DNA of 64,000 nt, from positions 4,965-68,964 of IMG/VR virus record IMGVR_UViG_2974646296_000001, one strand, 5' to 3'. Both the position numbers and the translations under genes were made by a program. Positions within the stretch are counted from its first letter, which is position 1, and every line of letters begins with the position of its first letter. This document shows positions 2,100 to 64,000 of this stretch, one piece after another. Origin of the DNA: a virus (lineage: Duplodnaviria; Caudoviricetes). Below the pieces are notes generated by a model. The model had not been told where the DNA came from and did no database searches. It worked only from the letters and a program-made list of their open reading frames with translations.

Positions 2100-3498
2100 A
2101 TGAAATTAATAAATACTTATAAAAGCTTTGATAGTCAAAGACCTTGGTTAATAGAAATTCCTATTACTAATAAAAATTTAATTACTTTAAATAAATTAAA
2201 AATGGGGTTTGATGTATATCATTTTAGAAACACAAACTCACTAGAGTGGTGCGGGGATATAATTAAGAAGGGAAAATAAATGAAATTATTAAATGTGTAC
2301 TACAACAAAGATTCTAGTAGAGATTATCCTTTATTAGAGATACCAAATGGAATTAAATTAATTTCTGTACCTTGTTATACCTATACAGCAATTCAAGAAT
2401 ATACTTTTGCGCGTCCTCAACAAGCTAAACAATGGTGTGGTGATAAATTAACAAGGAAAGATAATGAAATTATTTCCAACTTACAAAAATGATTACGATT
2501 CAGCTATGATTGAATTTGTAACTAATAAATATACATGTACTTTATATTGGGATGATCTTGTAAATCACAATAATGATGTAGGGCATTACAAAACTAGCTA
2601 TTGTAAATTTAGAATAACCAAGGATTCAAATGAAATTACTTAATGTTTGGGTACATCCTACTGAACCTGAAAGTTGGTTCCACTATTTTAAAGTAAATAA
2701 CCAAGTAATAAGATTTATACCTTCACCAAAACATAGAATAAATAATTGCCCTCTTAGAATAATACCAAATCATTTCGTTAAACTAGATAAACAATTAACA
2801 GTTCTTCGAACTGTTTAGTGGAGGTAATTTTATGAAATTATTATCAACTTATTATAACCAAAATGTTGATTTTGCTATTTGGAATGTAACTGGAAGGTAC
2901 GTTAAATTTTAAAGTGAAGATAAAATTTTAACTAGAACTTTGGGTGTAGATAAGGAACGTTGGATATATATTAATAGTTATAAACGTATTCCACGTAAAA
3001 TTAATACCCAACAAGATAGTCTAGATTAACTATATGAAACTAATTAAAAATACTTCTGCTTGGAATAATAATTGTTGGTTTAAAATTAATTTAATTGAAA
3101 CTAAAGCTATAGCTTTCAGTAAATTCTTTAAAAGATTTATTGTATACAGGAAAGTAAATTATGAAGTTAATTAAAAACTCAGCAATCAATAAACCGTTAT
3201 ACCCATAACTATATATGATAGGGTTATCTATCACGGATTACGTTTGGTTCAGACCTTGGAATAAAGATTTTAAAATTAAAACAACAAAAGGAAGTTATTT
3301 ATAAAAATGCAACTTCTACTTATTTATGAAGATAACAAGTACCCTAATGATTATTGTTGGTTACTTAAATATAAGTTATCTATATTTGCCTTAGATACTT
3401 CTGCAAAGAAACTTATAAGTTATTGGGGTATTCATCCATTGCCTACTGACTTTGTTAAAAAACAAAAGGAAATTATTTATAATAATGAAAATAACTAA
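2100..3498 (+). CDS. Cluster A of mini-ORFs: 2100-2279, 2280-2492, 2464-2643, 2630-2818, 2832-3029 (internal stop), 3034-3174, 3161-3304 (internal stop), 3307-3498
   Basis: Hand-translated starts: MKLINTY, MKLLNVY, MKLFPTY, MKLLNVW, MKLLSTY, MKLIKNT, MKLIKNS, MQLLLIY. The first two are clear paralogues (PWLIEIP/PLLEIP, EWCGD/QWCGD). Confidence 0.75.
2832..3029 (+). pseudogene. Mini-ORF with in-frame TAA at 2910-2912
   Basis: Frame continues past the stop to YKRIPRK, the family's IPR motif. Confidence 0.65.
3161..3304 (+). pseudogene. Mini-ORF with in-frame TAA at 3206-3208
   Basis: MKLIKNSAINKPLYP*LYMIGLSITDYVWFRPW...; frame preserved after the stop. Confidence 0.55.
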
Positions 3499-3730
3499 AT
3501 ATAATATTCACCATTTTCTAGATAAAATTGAATATGATTATTCAACAGAAACCTTAACTTTCTATACTAATATTAATGGTTATTACTTACCTGTAAGTAT
3601 TATCAATATTAGTTTAGAACCAACAGTAGTAATTACTACTAATATTAAACAATTAGATAGTCTAGGCATTACTAGAGATAAACTGTTTGAAGGTGCTATA
3701 CGATGCAAGAATTTAAGAGGGTACTCGTAA
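3452..3730 (+). CDS. Hypothetical protein (likely start MKITKY at about 3485)
   Basis: ORF track; ATG overlaps the end of the upstream mini-ORF. Confidence 0.55.
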   Translation: MLKNKRKLFIIMKITKYNIHHFLDKIEYDYSTETLTFYTNINGYYLPVSIINISLEPTVVITTNIKQLDSLGITRDKLFEGAIRCKNLRGYS

Positions 3731-5338: not shown

Positions 5339-5758
5339 ATGGCTATTAAATTACACTTGGTTCGGGATGATGAAACTAAAGTTGTTCCTTATGGTTTCTC
5401 TTGGACTACATTTATCTTTTCATTCTGGCCTTCACTAATTCGTAAAGATTGGGGGAGTGCTTTCAAAATTCTACTAGTAAGTTTCTGTACCACGCTAGGT
5501 TTGACTCTTGCTGGTTCATTGATTTATCACTACGAAAGTATGCATGGTGTATATCTACTTATTTACCTGTTAACTGTACTAATTGATTGGGTAATTGCAG
5601 ATAAGGTAAACAATTGGTATTCGCGTAAACTTGCTTATCTTGGTTGGAAAGTAGATTGGGTTAAAACACTTGAATCCAATGAACGTATCCGTGAACCAAG
5701 AACAGTATTAAATCTGTTAGCAGTAGATGGTTATTCATTTAAGGGTGATTATTCATGA
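5339..5758 (+). CDS. Membrane protein (DUF2628-like)
   Basis: VPYGFSWTTFIFSFWPSLIRKDW followed by hydrophobic helices. Confidence 0.6.
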   Translation: MAIKLHLVRDDETKVVPYGFSWTTFIFSFWPSLIRKDWGSAFKILLVSFCTTLGLTLAGSLIYHYESMHGVYLLIYLLTVLIDWVIADKVNNWYSRKLAYLGWKVDWVKTLESNERIREPRTVLNLLAVDGYSFKGDYS

Positions 5759-6057
5759 AACAATTAAGTTTGTTTATTTTACTTTTCCTATCTGTATTTA
5801 TCTTTGGCTGTAAATCTGAAGCTTCAGATATTCCAAGAAAATCATTACTTCAACTTGGTTTTGAACAGAAGTTAAGTACCGATAACATGCGTATATACCA
5901 AAATGTGTATAGTGGTAATTGTTACGTATGGAATAACTGGGCACATGGTGGTGAAATGTCATCGGTTCCTTGTTCTGACTTTGGATTACAAACCAAAGAA
6001 GAATTAGAACTACTTGAGAAACAGCAATACTTAAAGTTAAAGGAAAAGTTTGAATGA
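5755..6057 (+). CDS. Putative lipoprotein
   Basis: Signal peptide ending VFIFGC (lipobox-like). Confidence 0.6.
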   Translation: MKQLSLFILLFLSVFIFGCKSEASDIPRKSLLQLGFEQKLSTDNMRIYQNVYSGNCYVWNNWAHGGEMSSVPCSDFGLQTKEELELLEKQQYLKLKEKFE

Positions 6058-6905
6058 TTGATTACCAGTACATCCAACTATGTAAACGTATCTTAGCTGA
6101 AGGTAAATGGGTAACTAACCAACGCACTGGTAAACGTTGTTTAACTATTCGTAATGCAACCTTCCACTACACACCACTACTCTACGGTAATGGTTGGTAT
6201 GGTAATTTCCCTTTGGATACCACTCGGAAAAGCTTCTGGAAAGCAGCTATTGCAGAGTTACTTGGTTATCTGAAGGGTTACACCAATGCACATGAATTCC
6301 AAGCTCTAGGTGCTCCTACGTGGATTAATAATGCATACAATCCTGTATGGTTAGAGAATCCTAACTGTAAAGGTGGTGGGGATATGGGACATTGTTATGG
6401 TTCTGTAGGTCATAACTTTGGTGGGGTAAACCAATTCAAGAAAGTATATGATGATTTATCTGCTGGTATTGATGACAGGGGTGAGATTATTACCTTCTGG
6501 AAACCAGATGACTTCGATAAAGCTTGTCTACGTCCTTGTATGTTCCAACATCATTTCACTTTGATTGATGACCAACTATCACTTACTTCGTATCAGCGTA
6601 GTTGTGATGTTCCGTTAGGGCTAAACTTTAACATGATTCAAGTATATGTATTCTTGGTTCTAATGGCTCAGATTACAGGTAATCAACCATTGGGTGCTAC
6701 GCACCATATTGTGAATGCTCATATGTATGAAGACCAAGTAGAGCTAATGGAAGAACAAGTTAAACGTCAACCATTAGATATGCCTAAGCTTTGGGTAAAT
6801 CCAAACATTACTACATGGGATGATTTGATGAATGCAACTTTAGATGATTTCAAAGTTGAAGATTACAAACACCACCCTGCAATCAAATATCCATTTACTA
6901 CTTAA
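6054..6905 (+). CDS. thyA: Thymidylate synthase
   Basis: RTG, LRPC (catalytic Cys), YQRSCDVPLGLNFN, NAHMYEDQ. Confidence 0.97.
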   Translation: MIDYQYIQLCKRILAEGKWVTNQRTGKRCLTIRNATFHYTPLLYGNGWYGNFPLDTTRKSFWKAAIAELLGYLKGYTNAHEFQALGAPTWINNAYNPVWLENPNCKGGGDMGHCYGSVGHNFGGVNQFKKVYDDLSAGIDDRGEIITFWKPDDFDKACLRPCMFQHHFTLIDDQLSLTSYQRSCDVPLGLNFNMIQVYVFLVLMAQITGNQPLGATHHIVNAHMYEDQVELMEEQVKRQPLDMPKLWVNPNITTWDDLMNATLDDFKVEDYKHHPAIKYPFTT

Positions 6906-17358: not shown

Positions 17359-18068
17359 ATGCAACTTAAACCAATATATGAAGAAACATTCCTTAAAAAT
17401 ATAATTTATTATTTTAATTTTAATCGAAATTATAATTACACTTTTAACCCTAGGTTAAGATTTTTTACACGACATGATTATATAAAACCATTAAGTGAAT
17501 ACACTTGGTTAAGGAAAGTTAAATGAATTTACTTCCTACCTATACCAATATTAATGCCCCTACTCAAATTTGGTTTGATATTTTACCTCATAGTTATTCT
17601 TTTAAACTTAGTGATTGGTTTCATCTAATTGTTGCATCGCCTTTAAGTGAAACAGAAGGATTTATAAGGATTAAACCAAATGGAATTACTTAATACCTAT
17701 TGGTTAACTTCAAACAACTTACGTGTTTCTTTTGATTATTTAATAGATGGTTTTGATTTTATTCGAGACTCTAAAGAATTCAAAACTTATACCAATGCAG
17801 TAGAAAAAAGACTACAAATTAAAGATTTCCCTGAAGCTAGAAGGATTACAAGAAATTGAAATTGTTACCTGTGTTTAACTTTTCAAGTTCTGAGTTAATT
17901 TCATTTGATTACCCTGATTTAGACATTGGATTAGACTTTAATTTTTATAGATTAAAATTTACGAGTACATCTAATATATCTAACTCAGGTACTTCAATTA
18001 AGGATGCAAAATATTTCAAAAGAGTTATTAAAAATGAAATTAAACCAAGACCAAGAACAAGTACTTAA
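17359..18068 (+). CDS. Cluster C of mini-ORFs: 17359-17526, 17523-17693, 17680-17859, 17856-18068
   Basis: Starts MQLKPIY, MNLLPTY, MELLNTY, (TTG)KLLPVF; each overlaps the next. Confidence 0.75.
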
Positions 18069-28944: not shown

Positions 28945-29682
28945 ATGTCTGAAAATACTGAAAATACACAATTAGTATTAATTGCAGGTAAATCAGCAAC
29001 TGGCAAATCAGCTTCTTTACGTAACTTACGTAACCCAGAGAAGGTTGCTTATCTAAATTGTGAAAACAATAAAAGATTACCTTTTCCAGCTAAGTTTAAG
29101 CAAGCTAACGTAACAGACCCAAACCAAGTATTAACCACCATTAAAGCACTTACTGGTAATCCTGAGTATGGTCCAATCATTGTAGATACTCTTACATTTA
29201 TGATGGACATGTTTGAAACTCAGTATGTACTTACTGCCTCTAACGGTATGAAAGCATGGGGTGAGTATGAGCAGTTCTTTAAACGATTAATGCAAGATGG
29301 TGTAGCTAAATCAGATAAACCAATTGTATTCATGGCACACACTTCTGATGTGTATAATGAGAATGAAATGGTCAATGAAACTATGGTCAAAGTGAAAGGT
29401 TCACTTATGACTAAAGGTGTTGAATCATTTTTCTCTACTGTCATTGCATCAAAGAAAATGCCAGTTAGTAAATTGGAACCATATGAAAAAGATAACAAAC
29501 TTCTAAACATCACTGATGAGGAACGTATGTTAGGCTTTAAATATGTCTACCAAACGAAGCTAACTAAAGAAACTGTTAATGAACGTATTCGTTCACCTTT
29601 GGGTATGTGGACAAACCAAGAAACATTCATTGATAATGATGTTCAATTGGTTCTAGACCGTCTTCAAGAATATTACGCTTAA
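28945..29682 (+). CDS. AAA_24 / Sak4-like ATPase (N4 gp44-like)
   Basis: GKSATGKS, IVDTLT, FMAH; conserved position. Confidence 0.85.
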   Translation: MSENTENTQLVLIAGKSATGKSASLRNLRNPEKVAYLNCENNKRLPFPAKFKQANVTDPNQVLTTIKALTGNPEYGPIIVDTLTFMMDMFETQYVLTASNGMKAWGEYEQFFKRLMQDGVAKSDKPIVFMAHTSDVYNENEMVNETMVKVKGSLMTKGVESFFSTVIASKKMPVSKLEPYEKDNKLLNITDEERMLGFKYVYQTKLTKETVNERIRSPLGMWTNQETFIDNDVQLVLDRLQEYYA

Positions 29683-55196: not shown

Positions 55197-57809
55197 TCAT
55201 ACTATATAAGAAGACATTGCATAAGATTCAGTCTGTACTTCATCTTCCCACAAGCCAGAAGCATCATTATATTTCAATTCAATGCTTTCACTTGGTTTCC
55301 AAATCTTCATTAAACTCAACATAGAAATAGTATCTATAAAGTCATCATGTTTAGATTTAAAACCACTACGTGAAACCAATGATAATTCATTATGAGCTTC
55401 TACCATTGCAGGATGTTCAGACATATCTTCAGGGAAGTATATCATTCTTTGTTTGAACCAAGGTAATACAGTTAAGAATCTAGTGAACTTCTGGTTCGTA
55501 GGTCTTATACCCGGTTTATTATTGTTACCTTCTGAAGCAATATTAAAGAAGATATTCTTATCCATCATCATAGATTTGATAAGAGATACAAACCCACCCT
55601 GTTGACCGGTAACCTCTATACCTACATCAATTGGTTTATATATCTGAACCAACCTAAATAAATCTTCAATAGTTACATCTATGGTTTGTCTCTTACAAAT
55701 ACCGTCAATCCAATAGAGATACCCTTTATTATTTACTGCCCATACAGATATCACACTAAAGTCAGCTTGTTTCTTCTCGCTAGTAGCAAAGTCAGTAGTA
55801 ATGTAAATATTAAAGTTACCTAAGTTTCGGATTACATCCGACCTTACAAAGTATTGGATATCACCTTGCTCAATTAGCTTATCTTCTTCAGACATAATAC
55901 GTAACATTAACTCTTGGTTAAATGCATCCAGTTTATGCAGTCCTTTCATCTTGTTATAGAGTTTTAGAATAGAATCATAATCAAACCGATCTTCCCAACT
56001 ACCTCTAAACTCTTCTCTACTACAAGGAAATGTTTCACATACTGGATATACGTTTACTGCCCAAGCCCCGGATTCAACTGCTTTATACAATGGGTCACTT
56101 GCATTAAATGGCGTACCTGACCAGATTACTTTTCTCTTGTTTGGGTGCAGAGCAAATTCAATAGCATTGTATACGGTCTCTTCAATAGCTTTAATTACTG
56201 TTGGTGAACGTGCATCTTTATCACTAACCAAGTCATCCAATAAAGCTAATACTGGTCGACTGTTGTTTTCACGAGTTCCACGTACACCTGTCTGTGCGCC
56301 ATGACCACTAACTACAAAAGACTTACCTTCTTTATTTATAAACTCCCAACGTATATCTGTGAAACGTTTATCAGGTATATATTGTTGTAAGAATTCACTA
56401 TTATTCCAACGCTTCTCTAAGGATAACCGCATTTTCTTCACACCATTATCTATAGAGTCAGAAACATATAATGCATAAGGGACTGAACCAAGATTAGGTA
56501 ATTCATTAAATATAGCAATGTACCAAATCAAGTATTCTTTCAAGGTCGTATTGTGTGTAACTATAAAAGATTCTGCTAAAAAGGAGTGTGTAATATCATC
56601 AACAGCTATACATTGGGAAGGTTCCAATTCTATTGTAGTGATAGATTTAATAGCTATTCTTCCTTTTTTATTAGGTACCCACCTATTCACTTTACGGGGC
56701 AACCTAAAAATGCATTTATCAGCATAAATGTAAATACGAAAATATGTTTTTTCGTTGCACAACTTAGCCTCAAAACCAAGACTTCTAACTAACCATAATA
56801 CATCATTAGCTAAACCCTTAGACACTGTACAAAAACTGGATGAATTATTGTACACAGTGCCATCGGTGTCCATTAAACCTTGTAGTAGACTCAAACGTTG
56901 TACAGCACTCCCCCACAACAATTCTTGAGGGATTCGTTTATTATATACGTTTGCTGTTCCTACATACTTTTTGATTACTTTTCCAAGACCTTTGAGGGAA
57001 AATCTAACCCCGTTTGGATTCTTAGAATCAAACCGAACACTATTTTCGTCAGCTCCTTGTAGTTCTGATAAAAAAAACTTCAAATCATCTTTATGTGTGT
57101 GAAATCTAGTAAAACCTGTGTATTTATCTATAGAACCATCACCCAAAATACATCCAACAGTATAAGGGTCTAAAGGAAATTCTACAGGGTCTAGATTTAT
57201 ACATTCTATGGTAGGGATGAACCATTTGGACTCATAACCATTTGGATTCCTATCCGACACGTGACGAGTGTATACAACACCTTTATCCAATAATTGATTT
57301 GTTGTTAGCTCAAATTCTGCAAAACCCCCTAGACTTCTTTTGCCTGTTCTACGTTTCTGGACAATGTTTATATGGTCTTCTGAAACTTTTAATTCTCTGC
57401 CATCTTCCAAAATAATTTTATACATTGGTTTGTGGAAAACTTCTGATTTATGGGTAACTTTAGTTTTCTTACCATTTCGAGTAAAAATAGTATCACCCAC
57501 TTTTAAATCGCTTATAGTAATATTTCCGGTTGGCGTGGGTATTTGTGTATCTAAGCTCAAAGCTTTTGCTATACCACGATGGCACATGTTGATAGTATCT
57601 AAACCTTTTTTAACAAAGTTATCCAACATACGTAGATGGACTACTGGTGTTTTGTTTTCAGGATTACCACCTTCAATTAACTTAATTAAGTTAACCATCT
57701 TCACAGCAAATTCTGAAGGTACATAATCGTTGATATCCGAATAATCACAGTTATTCAGATAATCCTCTACTGTCATTGCTACTTTCGTTTTCTCTGGTAA
57801 ATCACTCAT
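55197..57809 (-). CDS. terL: Terminase large subunit containing an intein
   Basis: HRGIAK|TT Walker A, GVRG, LALLDDL, TDFA...ADFS, HDDFID; likely start MSDLP overlaps the terS stop. Confidence 0.95.
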   Translation of the reverse strand: MSDLPEKTKVAMTVEDYLNNCDYSDINDYVPSEFAVKMVNLIKLIEGGNPENKTPVVHLRMLDNFVKKGLDTINMCHRGIAKALSLDTQIPTPTGNITISDLKVGDTIFTRNGKKTKVTHKSEVFHKPMYKIILEDGRELKVSEDHINIVQKRRTGKRSLGGFAEFELTTNQLLDKGVVYTRHVSDRNPNGYESKWFIPTIECINLDPVEFPLDPYTVGCILGDGSIDKYTGFTRFHTHKDDLKFFLSELQGADENSVRFDSKNPNGVRFSLKGLGKVIKKYVGTANVYNKRIPQELLWGSAVQRLSLLQGLMDTDGTVYNNSSSFCTVSKGLANDVLWLVRSLGFEAKLCNEKTYFRIYIYADKCIFRLPRKVNRWVPNKKGRIAIKSITTIELEPSQCIAVDDITHSFLAESFIVTHNTTLKEYLIWYIAIFNELPNLGSVPYALYVSDSIDNGVKKMRLSLEKRWNNSEFLQQYIPDKRFTDIRWEFINKEGKSFVVSGHGAQTGVRGTRENNSRPVLALLDDLVSDKDARSPTVIKAIEETVYNAIEFALHPNKRKVIWSGTPFNASDPLYKAVESGAWAVNVYPVCETFPCSREEFRGSWEDRFDYDSILKLYNKMKGLHKLDAFNQELMLRIMSEEDKLIEQGDIQYFVRSDVIRNLGNFNIYITTDFATSEKKQADFSVISVWAVNNKGYLYWIDGICKRQTIDVTIEDLFRLVQIYKPIDVGIEVTGQQGGFVSLIKSMMMDKNIFFNIASEGNNNKPGIRPTNQKFTRFLTVLPWFKQRMIYFPEDMSEHPAMVEAHNELSLVSRSGFKSKHDDFIDTISMLSLMKIWKPSESIELKYNDASGLWEDEVQTESYAMSSYIV
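56550..57563 (-). mobile_element. Intein (338 aa, Ala1) with LAGLIDADG endonuclease
   Basis: Begins ALSLDTQIPTP, ends FIVTHN with +1 Thr; GCILGDGS and LQGLMDTDG blocks. Confidence 0.93.
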
Positions 57810-58479
57810 CTTCTTTACCACTCGTAATTGCAGCATGGGCTATGTCTTTAGCAGTCATTTCACCACTTTGAACCAATGCTACTTGTTGTTTACTTAGGTT
57901 AGCTAATGCAGCACTCAAATCTGCAATTACACCTGTATCTGTAGTACCAATCTCTACATTTATCTTAGCTGACTCTGGTGCTTTCAACTCTTTCAATAGA
58001 GTAGCAGCAGCTTGTACTTGGTCACGTTCACACTTAGCATTCTCCATTAAGTCAGCTAATCGAGCTATAGACTTATACCGGATAGAAGCATACATGATAT
58101 GGTCAGGAATAAGCGTTTGCTCATAAATAAGAGTAACCAACTTAGTCTTATTGTAGGTACTTGCGTAAGCAGCCATATCTTTATTAGAGATATTTCTATT
58201 TACCATATCCTGTACTCTAGTAGGGAATACCTTTTGGTAAGCTGCCATATTGCTCATACCCATTGTCTTATAGGATACAAACATTACAGCATTGAAATAG
58301 TCATCTAATTTGAATCTACCTTCTTGCAGTACCTTAGAATAAGTAAGAATATTATCTGTATAAACATTAGCCATTTGTGGGTCAGCAATCATCTTGTTCA
58401 AATCATCTACAAATTGCTGAGTAATTCTGCTCTTATGTTGTTTAGGAACTGAATCTCTAAGTTCTTCTACTGTAAGCAT
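57802..58479 (-). CDS. terS: Terminase small subunit (N4 gp69-like)
   Basis: YSKVLQEGRFKLDDY...AVMFVSYK...YNKTKLV...LKAPE. Confidence 0.85.
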   Translation of the reverse strand: MLTVEELRDSVPKQHKSRITQQFVDDLNKMIADPQMANVYTDNILTYSKVLQEGRFKLDDYFNAVMFVSYKTMGMSNMAAYQKVFPTRVQDMVNRNISNKDMAAYASTYNKTKLVTLIYEQTLIPDHIMYASIRYKSIARLADLMENAKCERDQVQAAATLLKELKAPESAKINVEIGTTDTGVIADLSAALANLSKQQVALVQSGEMTAKDIAHAAITSGKEDE

Positions 58480-58529
58480 GTTACACCTTAATAGAATATT
58501 GGGTTGATATAGTTAAGTAAGGATACAAT

Positions 58530-58718
58530 ATGAATGAAATAAAAATCAAACCTTCTAAGATTGGTTCACTTCGAGCTATCGCTCGTTCTGAGGGAGCTGT
58601 AAATGAAGATGGAAAGATATCAGTTAGGTGTATGTAAAGAAAACTAAAAGACCCAAAGACTTCTACAACAGTAAAGAAAAAGATTAACTTTGCATTGAAG
58701 GCAAGAGAAGGGAATTAA
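58530..58718 (+). pseudogene. Small basic protein with an in-frame TAA
   Basis: MNEIKIKPSKIGSLRAIARSEGAVNEDGKISVRCM*RKLKDPKTSTTVKKKINFALKAREGN*. Confidence 0.6.
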
Positions 58719-61411
58719 ATGAAACTAATTAAAACTATTTTAGAAAAAGAAGATATACATTGCTTTAAGCCTACGCGACTTAACAAGTATGACTCAGGTA
58801 TGTTTAATGAATGGGGTTCTAACTATTTACTTGGATTTGTTTATGAAATTAATTAATACAAAATCCATAAGATACATTAAGTTTAAACCCAATAACCAAC
58901 TACGTAAAGATGTGAATTGGGTTTATTCATTTGGTTACCAAATAGGTTACGAACATACAGATTATAGGTTTATATATGAAACTAATTAAAACCAAACATG
59001 TGAAATATTCTTCACCCAAATTCCCAATACCTTTAGTTAACATTGGCGAGGCTTACCAATTATGGGAAAGATACTCTTTAACGGAATTTACTTATGAGAT
59101 TAATTAAAACTCGCCCTTACCAAGGACAACTTAACCTGCACCAACCCAAACGATTAATAAAATATTACGATAATTTTTATGAATTATGGGGTGTTGATTA
59201 CCTGGTGGCATTTAAATATGCAGTTAATTAAAACCAATGTTGAAAAGTACTCTAGTCCTTTATTTAAACCCTATAAGTTAGCACCCCAATTCCAACATGA
59301 ATATGATCTATGGGGTGCTAACTTTGTAGTGGAATTTGAATATGTACCTAACCAAGAATAGATATGCCTTTGGAATAACCAATAGGTATTTCACTAAGAT
59401 AACTAAACATGTAATTGGTGGTTACTGTTTTGATACCTTTGATGGAAGGAGATTGTTTATAAATGACATTACATAAAGTAACTAAACAAACTAAAGTTTA
59501 CACTGAATATACCTATTACGTGTACGGTACTTTTCCGATTGCTTACAATATATTTTTTGAAAGGTTAACCTACTAATGAAACCACTTAAAGATGTTTTAT
59601 CTTTTTGGTACTTAGATAAGTGGTATGTACAAGAATTGTATAAGACACCAGCAAGATACATAAGTTTTAATAAATTTTGGAGTATTGCTGAATTTGATGA
59701 ATTCACCAACCCACAAGACCCATATAGATGGACGGTGAGAAGTAAATGAAATTACTAAACACTTATGAGAATAAAGATTTTAAAGCAAAAGATTATGATA
59801 ATTTAATTTTAAACCACAACAATAAAACTTGGGTTATGTGTGGATTACCTGTAACCACATTTAGTTTAAGAAAAGCATTTTGGGATAAGCATGATTTTCA
59901 ATTATTCACAAACCCTAAAACAACTAACCCTTGGACAATTAGAACCAAATGAAACTATATAAATCAATGGAAGGTACATGGGCACTTTCTTACACAATTA
60001 TATCTATAAATAGAATCTTATTTATAGACAGCCTAGGAGTTTACTACGCATGAAACTAGTACAAACTTACGCAGTATTACCAGACTTAAAAAGGTTAATT
60101 GGATTCAAGTTAGAATATTTAGGTACTTGGTTTACTGTATTTAAATTCGAAATAGAACCTTCTTACAACAGGTATGCACCAGATAATATTATCCCAATAC
60201 CTAGAAGAACTACTTGGAGTGATTTCAGTGAAACTGCATGAACTGGATAAACCAAAAGAGATGATTGGTATATGGAAGTATTACTACTTACCTAAGTACC
60301 GTGTAAGAGTTTACATAAGTGAGTTAATTGGTTCAGTTGGTTTAGATAACTAATATGACTTTACACAAGACAATTCAAAATAAACCAGATGTATTTGTAA
60401 TATACAAAGGAAAATGGATATGGCTCTTATAGAAACATATGACTACAACGGTATAGTGGTGAAAGGTGAGAAACCATACATACCTTACTTGGGTAGATGG
60501 TATACAGGTAATAAACAACTAAGATTATCCTTTAATCCTCACAGCCCTAATGCATTACTAAGAGTATACACATGGTAATACTACCTACGACTAAAGGTAT
60601 ATTTATGAGTAAATTACTTATAGATGTACCTTATAAACTTAATACTTACTTATTTATCCTATGAAACTAGCACACACTTATATACAGAATCTTTTCGCAC
60701 TGAACTTTGTAATCTCAGGTTACCCTTCCACTTTTTATACCAAAGGTAAACTTAAAACATTTTTATATAGTCCTACATCATTCACTGATCAATTCTGTAA
60801 GCCTTACCCTAGATTTACAAAAGAGATGAACCAATGAGATTACTTAAACAAAGAACTAAATATCATACTCAGAAAGAGCCAACATTATTAGTAAAAGTCA
60901 TTAAACCTTTCTATTTATATCATTCCAATTCTGTCACGGTAACATTTAAATATGAGATTAATTAAACACTCTGAACTAATTCCAACTACCACAAGTAAGT
61001 CAAAGTTATCTGCTTACCCTAGGGGCTTTTACTTAATAAACAATTTTAAGATTTATACATATGAGATTAATTAAACCATACAAACAATCCGATAGTCGTA
61101 GTAGTTCAAATATAAAATTGCATTGGGTTCTAAGGAATATTTATACAATCACTATTAGCTACCAATGGAGAGCTTTCTACTATGTACCTAATAAAAACTA
61201 AACAAGACCTTCTTGATAATCGTTGTTTTAGATATGGGTGCGAGTTTTGGGCTTATATAGTAAAAGGAGGCAGATTATTATGAAATTACTAAAGACAACT
61301 AAACTTAAATTTATGTTTACCACCCCCAGTAAGTTAGATAATCCATTTAAGTGTTTATATTGGTTTAGAAGTAATACTGAAGGTTGGGAATTTAAATATG
61401 AAATTAATTAA
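58718..61411 (+). repeat. Junction repeat TATGARRYTAATTAA
   Basis: Copies at about 58718, 58842, 58975, 59093, 59217 (variant), 60951, 61060, 61397; also 3033 and 3160. Confidence 0.85.
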
Positions 61412-61971
61412 ACACTACAAAGATCAACTTAACTTTATTCAATATACTCAAACGTATTTAGCTAAGTATAGTAGTGATATTGGATTTATCCTCGTACTCA
61501 ACTCAGGTAACTATTCTAAGTGGTACTTGAACCAATGAAGCTAACAGATACTTACATAAATAATGGTAACGTTAATCCTAAGACATGTATTTGGTTTAGG
61601 TTTAATAGTTACTACTTAGCTTTTCCTTTTAGAAGTAATACTGCACCAAACCAACTAATAGTAGCTGAAGGATTTGGTTATAGAACTTGGGATTATTGGT
61701 TAGGAGATAAATCAATACTTAAATTAACTAAACAAAAAGGAAAAGAGTTATGCAGTTGATTGAGACTTATGTAAGCAAAAGTAGAAAATCTATTTGGGTA
61801 CCTTATTTAAATAGCGCTTATAGTTCTTGGATAGAAGGTAAAAACTATTTAGATGATTTAGTGACTACAGAAGATTGGTCTATTGGGAATTTTAATACTT
61901 GGGTTTTAGAAGCTAGGGTACATAAACCAAGCAGAAAAGAATGGAAAGAGATAGTTGATAGTCTCGCGTAG
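58719..61971 (+). CDS. Cluster D: 24 chained mini-ORFs (25-74 aa)
   Basis: Starts at 58719, 58843, 58976, 59094, 59218, 59342, 59463, 59576, 59746, 59949, 60050, 60228, 60355, 60420, 60572, 60661, 60834, 60952, 61061, 61182, 61280, 61398, 61535, 61750. Hand-translated; each overlaps or abuts the next. Confidence 0.8.
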
Positions 61972-62109
61972 GAAATACTTAAATAATTTTAGAAACGACC
62001 TTAATGTAATTTTACTAAATTAAGTATAGCCGTAGTACTCCCATTTCCAGCTCGCAAAATCCAAGCATACCCCCCCGGTACCTCAGAGCTAGCTATACCA
62101 AACCTCTAC

Positions 62110-62126
62110 ATATTCCTTCGGAATAT
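62110..62126 (+). promoter_or_regulatory. Candidate vRNAP hairpin promoter
   Basis: ATATTCC-TTC-GGAATAT; template strand gives a C-GAA-G triloop, matching the N4 C-GDA-G promoter hairpin. Confidence 0.65.
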
Positions 62127-62168
62127 CTGTGGAAATTAATCCATTCATTTAACTATAGGAACTTCACC

Positions 62169-62390
62169 ATGAAACATTTACTAGCAGCACTAACTCTAAC
62201 CATCACTACTCTGTTCTCAGTATTCACTACTCTACTTGAGTGCATTGGTTTGCTATCTACTTCAGCTAAGAACGTAGCTCACGTAGTAGAAGATGCATCA
62301 GCTACATTCCGTATGGAAGAGAAACTGTTGAATGCTGATAAAATCAAGAAGCTTCAACAAGAACTATCAGCTAAAGATATCGAACTATAA
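62169..62390 (+). CDS. Early protein with hydrophobic N-terminus
   Basis: AGGA RBS; between a hairpin promoter and a terminator. Confidence 0.7.
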   Translation: MKHLLAALTLTITTLFSVFTTLLECIGLLSTSAKNVAHVVEDASATFRMEEKLLNADKIKKLQQELSAKDIEL

Positions 62391-62398
62391 CTATATAA

Positions 62399-62430
62399 CT
62401 AAAGGACTCTTCGGAGTCCTTTAGTTCTTT
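62399..62430 (+). terminator. Rho-independent terminator
   Basis: CTAAAGGACTC-TTCG-GAGTCCTTTAG plus T run. Confidence 0.85.
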
Positions 62431-63828: not shown

Positions 63829-64000
63829 CACCTAAATTAGCTCAAACCCTTGTGCCACAAGGCTTCAGGGGGTGTTTGAACCAAAAGGTACCCTTATAGT
63901 ATTTATATAATATACGTTGTATTTACCTGTATAAATATACATGCCTCTAAAACTCTCTGTATGCTTCTATATGAAGAGATAGTAGAGAGATAGGGGATAG

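Follow-up and report, generated by a model that had tools for sequence, protein, structure and literature searches.

A dual-coded stop/start joint as the probable site of unit turnover in a tandem mini-gene array of the N4-like vibriophage phiVchO139-I

Background

Modular shuffling mediated by PeSL elements, intergenic cassettes of about 100 bp that combine an early (sigma-70) promoter with a stem-loop terminator, has been described in T4-type phages (Arbiol et al. 2010, PMC2839356; Comeau et al. 2014, PMC4122927). Phage T4 also recombines at homologies of only 2-10 bp, which gives rise to tandem amplifications and deletions (Srikant et al. 2022, PMC9391042), and the internal-protein (ip) genes of T-even phages encode diverse proteins that share an N-terminal leader (Repoila 1994, as cited in PMC12373910). 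Here we analyze, against this background, a stretch of 64,000 nucleotides (nt) from the IMG/VR record IMGVR_UViG_2974646296_000001 (hereinafter, the window), which corresponds to positions 4965-68964 of the 68,964-bp genome of phiVchO139-I, an N4-like podovirus of Vibrio cholerae (Fouts et al. 2013, PMC3670811). The subject of the analysis is a 15-nt repeat, TATGARRYTAATTAA, in which the stop codon of one mini-gene and the start of the next one are typically encoded by the same DNA. In our assessment, this repeat is quite probably the head-to-tail joint of a tandemly expanded mini-gene family in the early/accessory block of N4-like vibriophages, such that short-homology recombination is channelled into the joint.

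Results and discussion

The exact sequence TATGARRYTAATTAA is present in the window in eight copies, all on the + strand (at 3033, 3160, 58842, 58975, 59093, 60951, 61060 and 61397), compared to a chance expectation of 0.01 in dinucleotide shuffles; with up to one mismatch allowed, the copies at 58718 (AATG...) and 59217 (TATGCAG...) are added, for a total of 10 against 0.31 expected. A preliminary description of this DNA, made from the letters alone, had listed about 10 copies of the motif, five of them in tandem between 58718 and 59231 at a spacing of 118-133 bp, and the measurements agree with both statements: the tandem copies at 58718, 58842, 58975, 59093 and 59217 are separated by 124, 133, 118 and 124 nt. 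Each of these distances has the form 3n+1, which fits a +1 frame step at each junction. One more copy is located beyond the window, at genome position 2310.

The neighboring open reading frames (ORFs) have 14 nt of the motif in common, with the upstream protein ending in Y-E-[I/T/V]-N-stop and the downstream protein opening with M-[K/R/Q]-L-I-K. The upstream E-x-N-stop is wholly set by the M-K/R/Q-L-I-K of the next gene with a YTA leucine codon: lysine at codon 2 of the next gene yields GAA (E) in the upstream frame, arginine yields GAG (E), and glutamine yields GCA (A), hence the end Y-A-V-N-stop at 59217, where the next gene opens with MQ. In the subfamily of 40-54 amino acids (aa), the upstream stop falls inside codons 4-5 of the next gene. 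The earlier reading of the motif as the stop of one ORF and the start of the next one is confirmed by the ORF list, with two reservations: at 58718, the motif is a gene start only, the stop of the upstream gene immediately preceding the ATG rather than lying inside the motif, and the ORF upstream of copy 3033 has decayed and contains in-frame stops (2910-2912 and 3027-3029). The ORF that follows copy 3160 has just 15 codons. All junctions within 58718-59231 except the first are 14-nt stop/start overlaps. The variant junction that had been noted at 59341 and 61181 (YVPN / MYL) is found in the ORF list at both positions, where YVPNQE-stop and MYL overlap by 20 nt, and a third overlap type, of 14 nt (..NDIT-stop / MTLHK), occupies 59463-59476. 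Throughout W1-W11 and W14-W22 (the W numbers denote successive mini-genes of the right-end array; Table 1), the genes overlap at every junction, by 14, 20, 10, 4 or 1 nt.

Information profiles place the conserved core of the overlapping joints at -8 to +16 around the ATG; at family starts that lack the 14-nt overlap, the pattern ATG-AAA-YTA-..-ACT-TAT is conserved more weakly. The 14-nt overlap between genes with unrelated interiors is also present in pVco-5 and in two metagenomic contigs. A scan of IMG/VR with an 18-nt motif gave more than 116 single matches in unrelated AT-rich contigs, that is, chance matches that are uninformative. Rather than a specialised site of recombination, the motif is the conserved beginning (codons 1-5) of the members of a paralogous family.

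Global alignments of 58500-62000 were constructed against phi 1 (Pacinivirus, ~90% identity here) and 12VC501, the close relatives of phiVchO139-I, and three phages of a second genus, MS02, BUCT194 and PhiImVa-1, were compared as well. The alignments are mosaics in which most units are 90-100% identical and some are absent or unalignable; at the motif, identity switches from ~95% to no alignment, with the transition inside the motif. Two units (58719-58975, 257 nt from ATG to ATG) that are flanked by a perfect 17-nt direct repeat, ATGAAACTAATTAAAAC, are missing from phi 1, which has at this place a single copy of ATGAAACTAATTAAAAC, preceded by the sequence to the left of copy 1 and followed by that to the right of copy 3. 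W15 and W16 (60834-61060, 227 nt) are missing from 12VC501, with the crossover within the 9-mer ATGAGATTA. Compared to phi 1, W16 (60952-61060) faces an unrelated cassette of a different length (50% identity) at the same place, while the flanking units are 96% and 94% identical; at either end, the change in identity coincides exactly with the motif. Relative to phi 1 as well as 12VC501, W18 and W19 have been replaced, and the right-hand switch falls precisely on motif copy 61397; W22 is replaced as well, the switch lying just past its first six codons; 12VC501 carries one different unit instead of W1-W4 between copies 58718 and 59217; and a 127-nt unit (3034-3160), between copies 3033 and 3160, is missing from both relatives. 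Direct repeats of 9-17 nt flank each motif-bounded indel. In the second genus, a 130-nt unit lies between two joint copies in BUCT194 and PhiImVa-1, and MS02 lacks this unit and keeps one joint copy with the outer flanks.

A two-state hidden Markov model finds 44 identity transitions, of which 17 lie in the interval -3..+20 relative to a family ATG, where 16% would be expected (P = 2e-4), and nearly all unit-scale events have both ends within this interval. The alignments thus show, in two genera of phages, that units are present or absent and cassettes are replaced, with the breakpoints lying inside the motif. The indels and replacements found against phi 1, 12VC501 and the second genus support the proposal of the preliminary description that recombination at the motif would add or delete whole genes; the pattern named there in advance as contrary evidence, namely, breakpoints off the motif and no variation at the level of units, is the opposite of what the comparison revealed. 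Reordering of units, which had been proposed as well, was not found between the relatives, the orthologues being syntenic. The pair pVco-5 and pVco-7 (99.5% identical, no indel) provides no test of unit turnover, and in a metagenome scan anchored on a neighbouring protein of 225 aa, no recovered contig exceeded 2.6 kb. One indel between JA-1 (KC438282 / NC_021540) and phiVchO139-I, that of VCO139_0077, has been published.

Several points weigh against recombination at the joint as the source of these differences. Some whole-gene events break elsewhere: phi 1 lacks W9 (59746-59952), the crossover lying between the C-termini of the paralogues W8 and W9; the gene at 3307-3498, which neither phi 1 nor 12VC501 has, lies between the copies of a ~30-nt repeat (3276-3508) composed of a Shine-Dalgarno (SD) sequence, spacer and ATG, which is a second kind of boundary repeat that mediates indels of whole genes; and in MS02, two identical SD-ATG boundaries of 15 nt enclose a macro-domain gene (5572-6098), an accessory cassette of an array of this kind. 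Moreover, any exact whole-unit indel in a tandem array appears broken at the joint, which makes the crossover site inseparable from the selection of surviving products; only two close relatives were compared per clade; and the basis is comparison of genome sequences, not populations or experiments. In 12VC501, an extra 130-nt gene is inserted at the start of W12. Taken together, the whole-gene indels at SD-ATG repeats and at paralogous C-termini indicate that the process is homology-driven and generic rather than a dedicated site-specific system; among the boundaries used, the dual-coded joint is the commonest and the longest shared one.

These events also bear on the possibility that the array is a dedicated cassette system of the integron, shufflon or CRISPR type, with the motif as an att-like site of a specific recombinase. 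The regular repeat-unit architecture and an 8-nt palindrome, TTAATTAA, that is contained in 7 of the 10 motif copies would be in line with such a system, but three copies lack the palindrome, equivalent whole-gene indels use unrelated short repeats, and the units are not foreign inserts but homologues of one another. The palindrome accompanies the TTA leucine codon and is absent from the CTA copies, and is probably a by-product of the L-I-K codons. A domain scan of ten proteins encoded in the replication module and in the flanking regions, including the only sizeable ORF adjacent to the array, detected no recombinase or integrase domain; within these ten proteins, as distinct from an exhaustive scan of the genome, this is in accord with the earlier remark that no dedicated recombinase is adjacent to the array. 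Altogether, we consider a dedicated system very improbable.

The mini-gene family includes ~30 + strand ORFs of 33-80 aa that open with M-K-L-[I/L]-x-T(-Y) and are located at both genome ends and in small clusters ahead of core genes, with satellite clusters at 2100-3498, 4807 and 17359-18068. The subfamily of 40-54 aa has the C-terminus F-x-Y-E-x-N and corresponds to PHROGs 11073 and 25913, function unknown. The units are arranged head to tail on one strand, with about 25 of the genes chained in this way, and are mutual homologues that align along the common N-terminus, P/L/Y/W positions and the C-terminus; paralogous units are only 35-45% identical as proteins (BLASTP E-values of 1e-4 to 1e-9), which leaves the joint as by far the most conserved segment. 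A wider family with the signature MxL[LIV]xTY fills the small-ORF block of MS02 and BUCT194. The AlphaFold (AF2) model of W1, built from a 19-sequence alignment, is a four-strand beta meander with a mean predicted local distance difference test (pLDDT) score of 89 and strands at residues 2-10, 22-24, 28-32 and 36-43, which makes both conserved termini strands of the predicted fold. A profile search of 1.8 billion representatives recovered only 18 relatives, apparently all from the same vibriophage group as judged by their sequences; many of these are identical or near-identical to units of the window, phi 1, 12VC501 and pVco-5-type loci, in a library that carries no source names. Pfam contains no family for the units, a Foldseek search of the PDB gave no match at E <= 0.001, a wide structural search (VIA) returned only generic beta-meander and propeller-blade rows with Z < 5, and the scores in the ESM Atlas were 0.80 or below.

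The units look like real genes: the orthologous ORFs in phi 1 are all open, the pooled ratio of nonsynonymous to synonymous polymorphism (pN/pS) is 0.41, and the AlphaFold model is confident. The original annotation of phiVchO139-I comprises only 79 coding sequences (Fouts et al. 2013, PMC3670811), so most of the mini-ORFs probably were not called, as could be expected if the array were a non-coding tandem repeat with accidental ORFs. This can hardly be the case, given that the ORFs stay open across 5-15% nucleotide divergence under the above pN/pS, distant phages retain the frame architecture even though the interiors are unrelated, and the structure is predicted with high pLDDT from a family alignment.

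A mechanism can be proposed on these grounds. Each unit would be a beta meander of 40-50 aa, with MKLIKT.. as the predicted first strand and ..FxYE[ITV]N as the last one; where the last 14 nt of one gene double as the first 14 nt of the next, the DNA would be constrained in two reading frames. With divergence of the unit interiors, the joint would be left as the sole near-identical stretch between neighbours, and ordinary short-homology recombination would for this reason be channelled into it. The agent could be the annealing and recombination functions of the phage or replication slippage, such that a dedicated recombinase would not be needed; given the use of 2-10-bp homologies by T4, a joint of 9-17 nt would be ample for this type of recombination. 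The products would always be in frame, with whole units deleted, duplicated or replaced and both gene ends intact; for each indel, we infer the direction (gain or loss). The Sak4-like ATPase mentioned in the preliminary description is indeed encoded in the window, as a protein with the AAA_24 domain (Table 1), and its involvement in unit recombination is a guess.

Alternatively, the motif could be a passenger: the joint would be conserved by selection on both termini and on the overlap, and the differences between units would come from illegitimate recombination or divergence filtered for intact ORFs, the motif itself not being the crossover substrate. Such a scenario is compatible with the conservation of the C-terminal and N-terminal strands past the overlap (F-x-Y upstream, T-Y downstream), with the indels that break elsewhere and with the pN/pS value, which implies that the proteins are under selection. 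It does not readily account for the perfect 9-17-nt direct repeats at the indel endpoints, with one copy kept, which is the signature of repeat-mediated events; furthermore, the mini-genes are individually dispensable, being present in some relatives and absent in others, which makes a strong filter against out-of-frame deletions unlikely, and decayed units are tolerated. Thus weighed, the passenger scenario appears unlikely, and recombination channelled into the joint remains the preferred explanation.

With regard to expression, no + strand terminator-like hairpin was found in 58530-62390, which suggests that the array is probably one polycistron; shuffled sequences contain more sigma-70-like promoter sites than the array does. 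The simplest interpretation is one polycistron of mini-cistrons, with coupling between them as an inferred feature; in a polycistron of this kind, free of terminators, the stop/start overlap would probably permit termination-reinitiation coupling. Two in-silico proxies do not lend support to coupling at the joints: the pairing with the anti-SD sequence averages -3.7 kcal/mol, which is weak and not distinctive (-1.4 kcal/mol at random positions; -3.4 to -5.2 at long genes), and the predicted RNA accessibility is at the unremarkable 68th percentile. A programmed frameshift that would fuse the units was considered and dropped: the joint contains no slippery heptamer, and each unit has its own ATG.

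Conservation of the start region could also reflect a cis-regulatory element, in which case the AU-rich beginning of ~30 early genes would be a repressor, RNase or polymerase-factor site, similar to those of T4 RegA/RegB, and recombination would be incidental. The first six codons are indeed conserved family-wide, even where no upstream gene overlaps, and Leu-3 is encoded by TTA or CTA in 32 of the 37 family starts, compared to 60% genome-wide. Conservation nevertheless tracks the amino acids (K/R/Q, L, I/L, T, Y), which the AF2 model places in a core beta strand, no match to Rfam was found, and no candidate regulator was identified; such an element would also be compatible with, rather than exclusive of, recombination at the joint. 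We regard the regulatory explanation as distinctly improbable.

The coordinates of the array and of the associated features are given in Table 1. The right-end array is flanked by a terminase-neighbour gene and by a 177-aa protein without a Pfam match. In the circular record of MS02, the small-ORF block is unbroken from the terminase-adjacent gene to RNAP1, and such an unbroken block in the circular records of related phages implies that the left-hand clusters belong to the same + strand accessory block as the right-end array (58.5-62.9 kb). According to Fouts et al. (PMC3670811), the genome has a direct terminal repeat of ~1974 bp, which is in the record at the 3' end only; the last 12 bases of the window (63989-64000) are the 12-nt motif with which, according to published data, the genomes of JA-1-type phages terminate at the 3' end, so the last ~1974 bp should be this repeat. 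The large terminase ORF (55197-57836) encodes 879 aa in the window, compared to 532 aa in phi 1, a difference consistent with the intein reported for phiVchO139-I by the same authors.

Some members of the array and of the left-hand cluster carry disruptions. The first gene of the right-end array, denoted g0, contains an in-frame TAA (58635-58637) where phi 1 has CGA, which cuts the protein to 35 aa, with the remaining frame open; the decayed member at 2832-3047 contains two in-frame TAA stops and an intact terminal joint; and the one at 3161-3208 has 15 codons, compared to intact ORFs of 42-45 aa in phi 1 and 12VC501. Suppression of the in-frame TAA codons by a tRNA was considered and rejected, the only tRNA being Arg(UCU). 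In phi 1, the region 3320-3436 has 33 extra nt, flanked by TGAAAC repeats, relative to the window at 59576; the insert puts an N-terminus of the family type (MKLLNTYEKKA) before the W8 orthologue, and the phi 1 gene is truncated at 38 aa. The macro-domain gene of MS02 is annotated as "ADP ribose binding protein", is missing in PhiImVa-1 and is replaced in BUCT194.

Table 1. Features of the mini-gene arrays and associated elements in the window (window coordinates)
Feature	Position	Strand	Remarks
Left-hand cluster	2100..3498	+	same MKL[IL]xT(Y) family; eight ORFs, two decayed
Two junction copies in left-hand cluster	3033..3174	+	copies 3033 and 3160
AAA_24 (Sak4-like) ATPase	28945..29682	+	candidate single-strand-annealing helper
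g0, first gene of right-end array	58530..58718	+	conserved in pVco-5, MS02, BUCT194
Five tandem junction copies	58718..59231	+	bounding W1-W4 (45, 48, 43, 45 aa) and the W5 start
W5-W11	59218..60241	+	joined by 20-nt, 14-nt, 1-nt and ATGA overlaps
W12-W14	60355..60837	+	MTLHK.., MDMALIETY.., MKLAHTY..
W15 and W16	60834..61060	+	227 nt, ATG to ATG
Cassette W16	60951..61074	+	bracketed by junction copies 60951 and 61060
W17-W22	61061..61971	+	variant junction at 61181
First + strand terminator-like hairpin past the array	62397..62426	+	13-bp stem plus T run

Significance and comparison with known systems

No description of the stop/start joint was found in the papers on N4-like vibriophages that were searched. 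The locus is a natural example of how a phage keeps a large, fast-turnover set of tiny accessory genes unbroken: the only long identity between units is the dual-coded stop/start joint, so that short-homology recombination yields whole, in-frame, still-chained genes. The analysis also draws attention to mini-proteins, ~30 per genome, that are probably under-annotated in the cholera and aquaculture vibriophages considered for therapy. A bolder proposal, to which we assign a low probability, is that the array is a self-shuffling arsenal in which the joint is kept partly because the population can exchange, amplify or drop single cassettes in frame; if so, each lineage would carry its own repertoire of host-takeover or counter-defence mini-proteins. 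In addition, the conserved edge strands (N-terminal KLIKT and C-terminal FxYExN) of these beta meanders, which resemble single blades only at the level of the above Z < 5 matches, might let different units pair edge to edge into mixed oligomers, in which case shuffling of units would amount to shuffling the subunits of an assembly.

In a CRISPR array, non-coding repeats separate spacers of foreign origin and cas genes are present, whereas here the "spacers" are mutually homologous ORFs, the repeat is coding, and there is no Rfam match; the earlier description of the locus as a repeat-spacer architecture with proteins as spacers is thus apt as a metaphor only. Unlike in integron attC arrays and shufflons, the exchange events in phiVchO139-I are not confined to one specific site. 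The array resembles coupled overlapping genes (ATGA, TAATG) in that the upstream stop overlaps the downstream start on what is probably one transcript, but neighbouring genes share 14 nt, or 20 nt at the variant junction, rather than 1 or 4, and coupling here is a prediction; the same overlap sequence recurs at many junctions because it is inherited by duplication. The T4 "accordion" (PMC9391042) similarly involves tandem gain and loss of accessory genes via very short repeats, with no dedicated recombinase, but its endpoints are arbitrary 2-10-bp homologies that differ from population to population, whereas phiVchO139-I reuses one joint, so that the products are always whole genes. The T-even ip locus, as described in PMC12373910, is a looser parallel: there, too, many dissimilar small accessory proteins with a conserved N-terminal segment vary between related phages, but the T4 leader is described as a capsid-targeting signal cleaved at maturation, whereas the N-terminus of the phiVchO139-I units is a predicted core beta strand of a 45-aa fold.

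Among known systems, PeSL-mediated modular shuffling comes closest, with the same logic and the same comparative signature. In both cases, the ORFs of a hyperplastic region are small, fast-evolving and non-essential, and a short conserved element recurs at their borders; where close relatives differ by an insertion, deletion or replacement, the element marks the ends of the difference; and the products of recombination would be viable, with the joints falling at acceptable places. The two systems differ in the nature of the element, which in phiVchO139-I is 15-25 nt long, lies within coding sequence and is read in two frames, in contrast to the ~100-bp intergenic promoter and terminator of a PeSL; in the phiVchO139-I array, no internal terminators are predicted and there is no promoter excess, so the defining feature of PeSLs is absent. 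Mini-circles have been demonstrated for PeSLs, whereas the phiVchO139-I process is proposed from comparison of sequences. With these distinctions, the array would extend modular shuffling, known from the intergenic promoter-terminator cassettes of T4-type phages, to coding sequence and to Schitoviridae.

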